From sequence record PZ386970.1: 64,000 bases of DNA. One strand, written 5' to 3'. The notes below the pieces were generated by a model, which ran no database searches, was not told where the DNA came from, and saw only the letters and a program-made list of their open reading frames with translations. Numbering within the stretch: the stretch's first letter is position 1; the number at the start of each line of letters is the position of its first letter. Positions 33,591 through 36,693 of this stretch are shown here, one piece after another. Source of the DNA: a phage. A program made the position numbers and the translations under genes.

Positions 33591-33773
33591 TTATAGTGAA
33601 TTCACATAGTCAATGAGTTCTTGTTCTTTCCTGTCAAATGATTCCAACAATGCTTGATATTCTTCATCTGTTAAAGGAGCATATTCATCGTACGCATTGG
33701 TGGCTGCTTGCTCATCCAATAGGTCATGGATAAGTTCGAACAGTTTAGCTTTCTCTTCTTTAGTCAATTTCAT
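33591..33773 (-). CDS. Hypothetical acidic protein
   Basis: 60 aa ORF. Confidence 0.45.
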   Translation of the reverse strand: MKLTKEEKAKLFELIHDLLDEQAATNAYDEYAPLTDEEYQALLESFDRKEQELIDYVNSL

Positions 33774-34264
33774 TTAGGTTCCCAATCAACAATCACAATT
33801 TCTAGTTTAGTGGAATACGTATCTAAAATCTCTTCGATGACATCCCAGTTTCCACCACCAATACCTGCACCAATTCTTGGCATATAAATTACAGGCTTTG
33901 TTATCTTATTCTTTCCGAATTTATTTAATTCTATTATACAATTCATTAAAGCAGAGTACTCAAAATTAGGTCCCGGCTCAAACTGTGTATAAAGATTAAA
34001 GCAATAAGCTTTATGGGTCTTAAAATATTTTTCATAAACTGAATAAGTCCCGAGTTTAGACTCGTCTCCGAATTCGGTTTGAAGTTTATCGGCTTCTAAA
34101 ATTTTTGGATAAGCCTTTGCTAATTGACCTGCTACACCGGCGCCCATTGTATGAAAACAATTACACCCATGAGCAATATTATTACCTTTAGAAAACAGGG
34201 CGACAATATCGCCCTTGATATAGTTTTTAATCACTTGCTGCAAGTCCTCTAGTATAAGAGTCAA
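33770..34264 (-). CDS. Macro-domain protein (ADP-ribose binding/processing candidate)
   Basis: 164 aa; GCNCFHTMGAGVAGQLAKAYP resembles the macro-domain glycine-rich ADP-ribose-binding loop. Confidence 0.55.
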   Translation of the reverse strand: MTLILEDLQQVIKNYIKGDIVALFSKGNNIAHGCNCFHTMGAGVAGQLAKAYPKILEADKLQTEFGDESKLGTYSVYEKYFKTHKAYCFNLYTQFEPGPNFEYSALMNCIIELNKFGKNKITKPVIYMPRIGAGIGGGNWDVIEEILDTYSTKLEIVIVDWEPK

Positions 34265-34574
34265 CTAGACGGTCCACCATAGAATTGCATGCTGCCTTAT
34301 CTTTAGGTTCCGCCACCGAGCATTCTAATATTTGCCATTTTTTATAGTATCTTTTAATTAAGGTAGACGCCTTGAACCTACTAGACGCCCCATCTTTTTC
34401 TCCGTCTTTATACGCATATAACAATTTTTGTGAAAAATCTACTTTACACTCTTGACTTTTACCACAATAATCAGACGCCGTTCTGTTTGTATACTCCGTC
34501 ACATCAGTATATGTAGTATTAGCAAGAGCGTTAAATGAAACCAAGCCAACTATTAAAGCCAACATTTTGGTCAT
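34227..34574 (-). CDS. Small secreted protein (signal peptide)
   Basis: 115 aa; N-terminal MTKMLALIVGLVSFNALA. Confidence 0.5.
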   Translation of the reverse strand: MTKMLALIVGLVSFNALANTTYTDVTEYTNRTASDYCGKSQECKVDFSQKLLYAYKDGEKDGASSRFKASTLIKRYYKKWQILECSVAEPKDKAACNSMVDRLVDSYTRGLAASD

Positions 34575-35113
34575 TCTTTTATTTCCAGTAGTTTATTTGA
34601 TTTAAGGTAATTAGCCTTTTCTAGGACTTCAGAAGCATATTTACTTCCAGCACTTGTCTTCCATCCCGCATTATATGAGGATATGGCTTTTCTTATATCC
34701 CCGTTATGTATATTTAACCAATAAGAAAATTCGATATAAGCCCATCTTGCTGAATTAGACCGCTTAGATAGCATTTTCTTAATTTGGGCATCAGTCATAT
34801 TATAACCAAGCTGGTTAATTCTTGCCCTCATTGTTGGTAGATAGTTTTGGAACATTCCATACGCATGGTGACCTTTCTTATCTTTAAGATTAATACCGGC
34901 AGATGATTCTTGCCATAATATTGCGGCCATTATGTATCCAAGTCCTTTCTTATGCATATTTTCATGCGTTTTAAATTTTCCGTCCTTAGAAAACTGTTCC
35001 CCAAACTGATAAGCATAATTCAAGTTATCGAGTTGGACATTACTAAAAGTATGCTCGGAGCTATGTGCTGATAATGAAAGAGCAAATAGACCAGCGAGTA
35101 GTGCTTTTCTCAT
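34571..35113 (-). CDS. Secreted lytic-transglycosylase-like (SLT-domain) protein
   Basis: 180 aa; signal peptide MRKALLAGLFALSLSAHS; WQESSAG…HAYGMFQ resembles the SLT catalytic motif (ES…G…GLMQ). Confidence 0.55.
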   Translation of the reverse strand: MRKALLAGLFALSLSAHSSEHTFSNVQLDNLNYAYQFGEQFSKDGKFKTHENMHKKGLGYIMAAILWQESSAGINLKDKKGHHAYGMFQNYLPTMRARINQLGYNMTDAQIKKMLSKRSNSARWAYIEFSYWLNIHNGDIRKAISSYNAGWKTSAGSKYASEVLEKANYLKSNKLLEIKE

Positions 35114-36117: not shown

Positions 36118-36331
36118 AAGGAATTTCCTCATCGGTGGCAAGGTCATATTCGACCAATTGGATAGGCTCGTTAATACCATATCCACGTACAGTGATATCA
36201 GTTGTCGGATAGTTTCCAGTAATATCACCCGTTCTAAATGATTCAATGAATGATTGCTCGCCTGAGCAACTAAACCAGGCGGCAAAACATTTTAAAACAT
36301 CTTCAGACCCTTCTATAATCAATTTAGCCAT
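36107..36331 (-). CDS. Hypothetical acidic protein
   Basis: 74 aa ORF. Confidence 0.45.
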   Translation of the reverse strand: MAKLIIEGSEDVLKCFAAWFSCSGEQSFIESFRTGDITGNYPTTDITVRGYGINEPIQLVEYDLATDEEIPYVD

Positions 36332-36693
36332 TATAGACTCTCAGTAAAGGTACGAGCGATAACGTCGCGCTGCTGTTCCGGAGTCAGAGAGTTAAAGCGA
36401 ACTGCATAACCGGATACACGGATGGTCAGCTGCGGATATTTTTCTGGATGCTTAACTGCATCTTCCAGAGTTTCACGACGCAGAACGTTAACGTTCAGGT
36501 GTTGTCCACCTTCAATTTTAACTTTAGGTTGATGTTCAATTTCAATTTCACGGGCATTCAAACCGTAGAAAATTTCTGGGTCTACAATAGCGTCTTCTTT
36601 AAAAGTCTTAGAGACAATAATCCGGGCTTGAGTACCGTCTTCAAAATAAATAGTGCCTTTATGTGCACCTTCAAGAATTTGATATGCTTTCAT
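36331..36693 (-). CDS. Autonomous glycyl-radical cofactor (YfiD/GrcA-like)
   Basis: 120 aa; C-terminal [27 protein letters not shown] matches the pyruvate-formate-lyase glycyl-radical motif (RVSGY). Confidence 0.8.

Follow-up and report, generated by a model that had tools for sequence, protein, structure and literature searches.

We analyzed a 64,000-nucleotide stretch of phage DNA (sequence record PZ386970.1; the whole stretch is referred to as the window here) and focused on a 164-codon open reading frame (ORF) at 33770..34264 on the minus strand, which begins with TTG and ends with TGA in the ORF listing of the window. The ORF sits within a long run of minus-strand genes. Downstream of it, a gene for a 60-amino-acid DUF7438 protein (PHROG 653; 33591..33773, minus strand) lies between it and the neighboring thymidine kinase gene, tk (Pfam TK, E = 7e-57). 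Upstream lie vs, which codes for the valyl-tRNA synthetase modifier (minus strand; PHROG 1256), and a homolog of T4 vs.1 at 34571..35113 (minus strand). The same minus-strand block also encodes RegB (Pfam REGB_T4, E = 4e-69), and the neighborhood of the ORF is the T4 tk-vs-regB block. According to megablast, the window is 98.5 to 98.8% identical to Mosigvirus (RB69-like) phages, e.g., Shigella phage ESh15 and Escherichia phage 348Ecol098PP. The preliminary description of this DNA had placed the ORF in the early region and had drawn on T4-like phages, and both points hold, given that the window belongs to a T4-like Mosigvirus and that the long minus-strand block is pre-replicative. Among the other genes on this strand, the vs.1 homolog has an N terminus that resembles a signal peptide and a match to the SLT lytic transglycosylase model of 18.8 bits, below the gathering score of 21.3; for T4 vs.1, this weak match had been noted as early as 2006. 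A homolog of T4 vs.6, a GrcA-like autonomous glycyl-radical cofactor, is encoded at 36331..36693 (minus strand).

The length of 164 amino acids given in the preliminary description is about 10 codons too long. Similarity to T4 Tk.4 starts at codon 11 of the ORF, which is a GTG at position 34234, and the closest protein cluster (P0001, 97% identical, 184 member sequences) has the N terminus MIKNYIKGD. T4, Lv5cm, JS10, KPV15, and Cronus all have an ATG at exactly this position. The upstream ten-codon extension that starts with the TTG at 34264 (34235..34264, minus strand) falls within the 3' end of vs; no homolog reaches into it, and T4 carries an in-frame TAA and an in-frame TAG within the equivalent stretch. 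Given the lack of homologs over the extension, the T4 stop codons, and the conservation of ATG or GTG at 34234, we rejected the TTG start. The GTG at 34234 is almost certainly the real start codon, yielding a coding sequence at 33770..34234 (minus strand, TGA stop) with a product of 154 amino acids, and the extension is probably untranslated.

This start codon overlaps the TAA stop of vs, as read directly from the sequence GTGATTAA (34227..34234, minus strand), where T4 has ATGA. A putative Shine-Dalgarno element, GAGGA, is located 10 nucleotides upstream of the GTG (34245..34249, minus strand); at the same site T4 has GAGGA and JS10 has GAGGG, and T4, Lv5cm, and JS10 share one or the other 10 to 11 nucleotides upstream of their start codons. 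At its other end, the gene shares an ATGA (33770..33773, minus strand) with the downstream DUF7438 gene, whose ATG overlaps the TGA stop. These overlaps on both sides suggest that translation of the gene is coupled to that of both vs and the DUF7438 gene. In two near-identical Mosigvirus genomes (OR062947.1, L001:2271-2648; ON528725.1, L003:6466-6843), the gene is annotated as a 125-amino-acid coding sequence from the internal Met30, corresponding to 33770..34147 of the window. This start would cut off strands β1 and β2 together with the near-invariant residues G8, H22, G23, N25, and C26, leaving a product that lacks the His/Asn strand of the active site. The annotation is almost certainly a gene-caller artifact, which arose because the true start is a GTG.

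We found no evidence for a promoter of its own: the window contains 10 σ70-like sites, compared to 12 expected from shuffled sequences, and none of them is located just upstream of the gene, so we assume cotranscription with vs. The pattern of the MotA box was found 13 times in the window (3.5 expected), with 9 of the 13 matches on the minus strand. The only one near the gene is a middle-promoter-like match, TGCTTTA-N13-TAGAAT, at 33928..33953 (minus strand), which lies within the coding sequence and points toward the DUF7438 gene and tk. A hairpin that resembles a terminator (AGGGCGAT-ATT-GTCGCCCT, followed by GTTTTCT; 34197..34215, minus strand; -13 kcal/mol) is located 19 to 37 nucleotides into the coding sequence. 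T4, Lv5cm, and JS10 (57% amino acid identity) have exactly the same stem, with synonymous differences confined to the loop and the bases that directly follow the stem, while the hairpin is absent from KPV15 and Cronus, whose peptide differs; in other words, the hairpin is kept wherever the peptide KGDIVAL is kept. Since the stem shows no compensatory changes among the compared relatives, we make no claim about its significance.

The product of 33770..34234 is a small single-domain macrodomain protein of the ALC1-like class. The preliminary description had proposed a macrodomain from the size of the protein and a glycine-rich loop, and both sequence and structure comparisons bear this out. Residues 32 to 146 of the 164-amino-acid ORF match the Pfam Macro model (PF01661) over profile positions 2 to 117 of 118, with 28.4 bits at a gathering score of 22. 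When searched with phmmer against the sequences in the PDB, the protein matched BT1257 (4.5e-11), yeast Poa1p (1e-8), SCO6735, TARG1, and the macrodomains of DarG, and a profile built from 90 family sequences lifted the matches to these PDB sequences to E values of 5e-18 through 2e-11. An AlphaFold2 model, predicted from the same 90-sequence alignment, reached a pLDDT of 95.9 and a pTM of 0.91. Foldseek, which had been suggested as a check, placed macrodomains at the top of the PDB, with TARG1 (E = 2e-10), Poa1p, DarG, BT1257, and SCO6735 ranking first. [quoted passage not shown] Both structure and sequence are nearer to the ALC1-like class (TARG1, DarG, SCO6735, and Poa1p) than to macrodomains of the MacroD, macroH2A, or PARG type.

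Within the T4-like phages, the gene is the syntenic ortholog of T4 tk.4. Pairwise alignment of the window protein with T4 Tk.4 yielded 83% identity and 94% positives without gaps over 153 amino acids (E = 2e-102). In T4 (NC_000866), tk.4 lies between tk.3 and vs and codes for 155 amino acids (NP_049723; annotated as “phosphatase; contains A1pp phosphatase motif”). The order regB - vs.1 - vs - tk.4 - small ORFs - tk is conserved in the window, T4, and their relatives: across the five Tevenvirinae genera that we examined (Mosigvirus, Dhakavirus, Tequatrovirus, Jiaodavirus, and Roskildevirus), the gene always lies in the interval from regB to tk, and where vs is annotated, the gene follows it immediately. 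The two orthologs thus have about the same length, occupy the same slot with the same overlap of start codon and vs stop, and share all of the invariant residues; they differ in the start codon (ATG in T4, GTG in the window) and at the C terminus (EPLL in T4, EPK in the window). Downstream, a single DUF7438 gene stands in the window where T4 has the three small genes tk.1 to tk.3.

To our reading, the gene and its role against DarTG2 are already known through this ortholog, and the novelty implied by the preliminary description does not stand. The match of tk.4 orthologs to A1pp, i.e., the macro domain, was published in 2006 (PMC1524935), the T4 annotation itself mentions the motif, and several near-identical genomes already name the gene “macro domain protein.” More recently, tk.4 was the single hit of a transposon-sequencing screen (HIDEN-SEQ) of T4 on a DarTG2-expressing host, and a clean tk.4 knockout made T4 sensitive to DarTG2, upon which the gene was renamed adfM, for anti-DarT factor Macrodomain (bioRxiv 10.1101/2025.11.20.689424). 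In effect, the rescue from a DarT-type toxin that the preliminary description had suggested as a test has therefore been carried out for the T4 ortholog. This phenotype was established in T4 with one DarTG2 allele, in a preprint of November 2025 that is not peer-reviewed and that words enzymatic removal of ADP-ribose as “likely” only (bioRxiv 10.1101/2025.11.20.689424). The result fills a gap left by the study of AdfN, in which T4 without adfA and adfN still resisted DarTG2 (PMC11825919).

To assess the conservation of the active site, we aligned the family with the DarG proteins of Mycobacterium tuberculosis and Thermus aquaticus and SCO6735 of Streptomyces coelicolor (sequences from the PDB), TARG1, and BT1257 of Bacteroides thetaiotaomicron, using profile and MAFFT alignments. 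Conservation was counted in the 90 aligned relatives and in another 141 sequences, each representing a 50%-identity cluster from an exhaustive profile search of 1.84 billion proteins, adding up to 231 sequences. The active-site strand H22-G-C-N25-C (34157..34171, minus strand) carries His22 and Asn25, the counterparts of His24 and Asn27 in SCO6735; Asn25 is kept in 230 of the 231 sequences (89/90 and 141/141) and His22 in 223 (88/90 and 135/141). The glycine-rich peptide quoted in the preliminary description is present and corresponds to macro loop 1, M30-G-A-G-V-A35 (34130..34147, minus strand), which contains the GxG motif and forms part of the predicted ADP-ribose cleft. G33 and A35 are invariant in this loop, which aligns to MGAGIA in TARG1 and MGKGIA in DarG. 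Further downstream, the motif N80-L-Y-T-Q84 (33983..33997, minus strand) places Gln84 where TARG1 (K84, in LITK) and DarG (K80) have their catalytic lysine; in the alignments it is the equivalent of the essential Gln85 of SCO6735. Gln84 is invariant across the whole set (90/90 and 141/141). The diphosphate-binding loop 2, P119-R-I-G-A-G-I-G-G-G-N-W130 (33845..33880, minus strand), has invariant P119, I121, G122, and G124 and a nearly invariant W130. Tyr82, Gly33, Gly122, and Gly124 are about as conserved as Gln84 and Asn25.

Judging by these alignments, the active site of the window protein is SCO6735-like and not DarG-like. The protein shares these active-site residues with the Gln-type ALC1-like subclass represented by SCO6735 (PDB 5E3B) and Bt_1257 (2FG1/2AFC), in which H24, N27, and Q85 of SCO6735 correspond to H22, N25, and Q84. 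In SCO6735, Asn27 locks Gln85 in place; activity is lost in Q85A and Q85E and nearly lost in N27S. The enzyme removes thymidine-linked ADP-ribose from DNA more rapidly than either DarG or TARG1, and it rescues cells from DarT (PMC9411070). Neither the Gln/Lys difference nor SCO6735 is mentioned in the T4 adfM preprint (bioRxiv 10.1101/2025.11.20.689424). The likeness has limits, however. The identity to BT1257 is only about 29%, and the “mobile loop” that follows the glutamine in BT1257 is 6 residues longer than in the window protein and the family profile. In the window protein, Q84 and Y92 are separated by 7 residues, and the extra length of about 5 residues over TARG1 or DarG that marks the loop of the subclass is absent. 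The length of this loop follows a bimodal distribution among the 141 representatives, 66 of which have 7 residues and 46 of which have 10. The two lysines by which SCO6735 positions DNA, K34 and K89, have no equivalents: the position of K34 is Ala32 in the window protein (A, S, or G in 138/141 representatives), and K89 falls in the loop that is shortened. Finally, SCO6735 is encoded by a chromosomal, DNA-damage-inducible gene, while the window gene is phage-encoded.

We rejected an assignment to DarG (PDB 5M31, 5M3E, and 5M3I), whose Lys80 lies in the motif NFPTK where the window protein has NLYTQ. DarG, with about 340 amino acids in total, also has a C-terminal DarT-binding domain that is lacking from the 154-amino-acid window protein. 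The DarG model NF048014 of NCBIfam scored 32.1 bits at a cutoff of 250 and matched over positions 4 to 148 of 338 only, and the DarG model of PADLOC was matched only at positions 4 to 145 of 329. No darT partner lies beside the gene, whose neighbors are vs and the DUF7438 gene. Given that there is no lysine equivalent to DarG K80, the appropriate catalytically dead control is Q84A. Human TARG1 (OARD1; PDB 4J5Q-S), the top Foldseek match (profile E = 1e-16), is likewise a single domain of similar size and also reverses the thymidine ADP-ribosylation by DarT (PMC9411070), but the Lys84/Asp125 dyad of TARG1 is replaced by Gln84 and Gly126 in the window protein; DarG, too, has a Gly at the Asp125 position.

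A second phage protein named AdfM, gp104 of the chimallivirus PhiKZ, removes T-ADPr from DarT2-modified DNA in vitro (Cell Rep 2026, PMC13309987). Like the window protein, it is a phage-encoded orphan macrodomain, in this case shown to counter DarTG2; in contrast, it is imported into the phage nucleus. Its translated sequence contains FPTKDNW and is thus Lys-type like DarG, and BLASTP against the window protein returned only a 23-residue local match (E = 6e-4). We therefore did not accept PhiKZ gp104 as a member of the same family, and the sequences indicate that the T4-type and PhiKZ-type proteins are separate sub-lineages of one macrodomain class. As a consequence, two nonorthologous proteins, the Gln-type T4 Tk.4 and the Lys-type PhiKZ gp104, now share the name AdfM.

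In our view, the observations are probably best explained by a counterdefense function, in which the window protein removes ADP-ribose installed by DarT2 from thymidine in phage DNA. What we observed here is the fold, the class, the orthology, the synteny, and the conservation of the active site; the relatives contribute the genetics of T4 tk.4 and the hydrolysis of dT-ADPr by SCO6735 and the PhiKZ macrodomain, and by analogy to these we infer catalysis on dT-ADPr DNA for both the window protein and T4 Tk.4. The protein would be made before DNA replication from a regB-vs.1-vs-tk transcription unit, with its translation coupled to that of vs. DarT2, the bacterial toxin of DarTG2, attaches ADP-ribose to N3 of thymidine within single-stranded TNTC motifs of the replicating phage DNA and thereby blocks replication. 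The ADP-ribose would then be held in the cleft of the macrodomain by loop 1 (MGAGVA) and loop 2 (IGAGIGGG), and hydrolysis of the bond between ribose and thymine would release it and restore normal DNA. The chemistry is probably of the SCO6735 type, without a catalytic lysine, where Gln84, held by Asn25, would position the distal ribose for a cleavage initiated by water, along the route that has been proposed for SCO6735. As the protein would act without the DarT-binding C-terminal domain of DarG, it could be regarded as an “orphan antitoxin.” A counterpoint to such a DNA eraser is that the DNA-positioning lysines of SCO6735 are missing and that the protein, with a pI of 6.8, is near-neutral rather than basic. 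However, pI and net charge proved uninformative as a proxy for DNA binding, because the active PhiKZ gp104 has a pI of 5.05; this protein also has an Ala at the K34 position, as in the window protein, showing that the lysine at this position is not universally needed. Since related enzymes also accept Glu-linked ADP-ribose on proteins (PMC9411070) and uracil-linked ADP-ribose in RNA (PMC13036486), DNA may not be the sole target of the window protein.

Several other functions have to be weighed against this eraser role. Database names such as “phosphatase” and “O-acetyl-ADP-ribose deacetylase” imply a housekeeping hydrolase of small molecules, i.e., a Poa1p-like ADP-ribose-1''-phosphate phosphatase acting after RNA repair or tRNA splicing, or a deacetylase of O-acetyl-ADP-ribose. 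These labels stem from the old name of the A1pp domain and not from assays, and such a hydrolase, which we consider unlikely, would leave unexplained why tk.4 is required specifically on DarTG2 hosts. The phmmer alignment pairs the invariant LYTQF of the family with LFTSSF in Poa1p, which thus apparently has a Ser instead of the Gln, and the conserved Gln/Asn pair is the one that SCO6735 needs for cleavage of dT-ADPr DNA (PMC9411070). Protection could also be mainly noncatalytic, by direct inhibition of DarT2 or by acting as a decoy or sponge for ADP-ribosylated DNA or ADP-ribose. Inhibition of DarT in vitro persists in catalytically dead forms of SCO6735 (Q85A), DarG (K80A), and TARG1 (K84A) and is strongest with SCO6735 (PMC9411070), and the anti-DarT factors AdfA and AdfB are nonenzymatic (PMC11825919). 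The whole active-site set is nevertheless invariant among the more than 230 diverse relatives, pointing to selection for catalysis, and the single domain of 154 amino acids has no counterpart to the dedicated DarT-binding domain of DarG. Moreover, the phages that carry homologs infect many hosts, whose DarT variants differ, and reversal of the product fits this better than toxin-specific binding does. We regard a noncatalytic mode as quite improbable as the main one.

We are similarly reluctant to assume that the main target is ADP-ribose on RNA (e.g., uracil-linked) or on proteins, attached either by ADP-ribosyltransferases (ARTs) of the host defense or by the phage enzymes Alt, ModA, and ModB. 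T4-like phages do carry ARTs, but the Alt and Mod enzymes modify arginine, and we know of no macrodomain that cleaves the ADP-ribosyl-arginine linkage. A host defense that ADP-ribosylates RNA, CmdTAC, does exist, and SCO6735 and TARG1 efficiently reverse uracil-ADPr on single-stranded RNA (PMC13036486), while SCO6735 also removes the modification from PARP1 (PMC9411070). On the other hand, the phenotype of the T4 ortholog is specific to DarTG2, an ART for thymidine in DNA. CmdTAC is reported to act robustly against T-even phages that carry tk.4, so that tk.4 evidently does not neutralize it; in the CmdTAC paper, phage macrodomains come up in the references only. Given the robust activity of SCO6735 on uracil-ADPr RNA (PMC13036486), RNA may be a secondary substrate. 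The preliminary description had also considered the hydrolysis of signals derived from ADP-ribose, e.g., the immune messengers gcADPR or His-ADPR of Thoeris. This idea found no support in our analysis, nor any genetic or biochemical support in the literature we surveyed, and the macro domains of the ThsA type are structurally much farther from the window protein than the TARG1/DarG/SCO6735 group; we regard it as very improbable.

Removal of DarT2-installed ADP-ribose from DNA, the reading that we favor, matters in that DarT toxins do defend bacteria against phages by ADP-ribosylating the phage DNA, and phage-encoded erasers of this mark are part of the arms race. As this has already been described for T4 adfM/tk.4 and PhiKZ gp104, the window adds only one more ortholog. 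In many records, the gene is misnamed “phosphatase.” Tentatively, the AdfM proteins of Tevenvirinae might represent more than simply an “orphan DarG,” namely, a distinct and very widespread phage branch of the lysine-less, Gln-type macrodomains with a short loop after the Gln and without the DNA-positioning lysines; we see this as a possibility, but a rather improbable one. If it were true, the substrate range may be broader than or different from that of DarG, e.g., including uracil-linked ADP-ribose on RNA, and the targets may include products of DarT-like toxins not yet described. Catalysis may then combine with direct inhibition of the toxin, and the DarTG2 phenotype of T4 would be one facet of a general nucleic acid de-ADP-ribosylase.

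The family is also found beyond the T4-like phages. We retrieved homologs from 2,800 of 50,697 phage records with tblastn, including phages of Escherichia, Klebsiella, Salmonella, Pseudomonas, Vibrio, Acinetobacter, Aeromonas, and other hosts. The exhaustive profile search yielded 1,246 clusters at E ≤ 1e-30 and 9,147 at E ≤ 1e-10, and the structural matches in BFVD are phage macrodomain proteins as well, including “tk.4” of Acinetobacter phage 133. Distant members in Ounavirinae, Pakpunavirus, PBS1, and Kuttervirus all retain the motif N-x-x-[TGS]-Q. In Pseudomonas phage PAK_P4 (L009:610-2983), a distant Gln-type homolog is encoded just downstream of the genes for nicotinamide phosphoribosyltransferase and PRPP synthetase, a context of NAD salvage that is unlike that in the T4-like phages.
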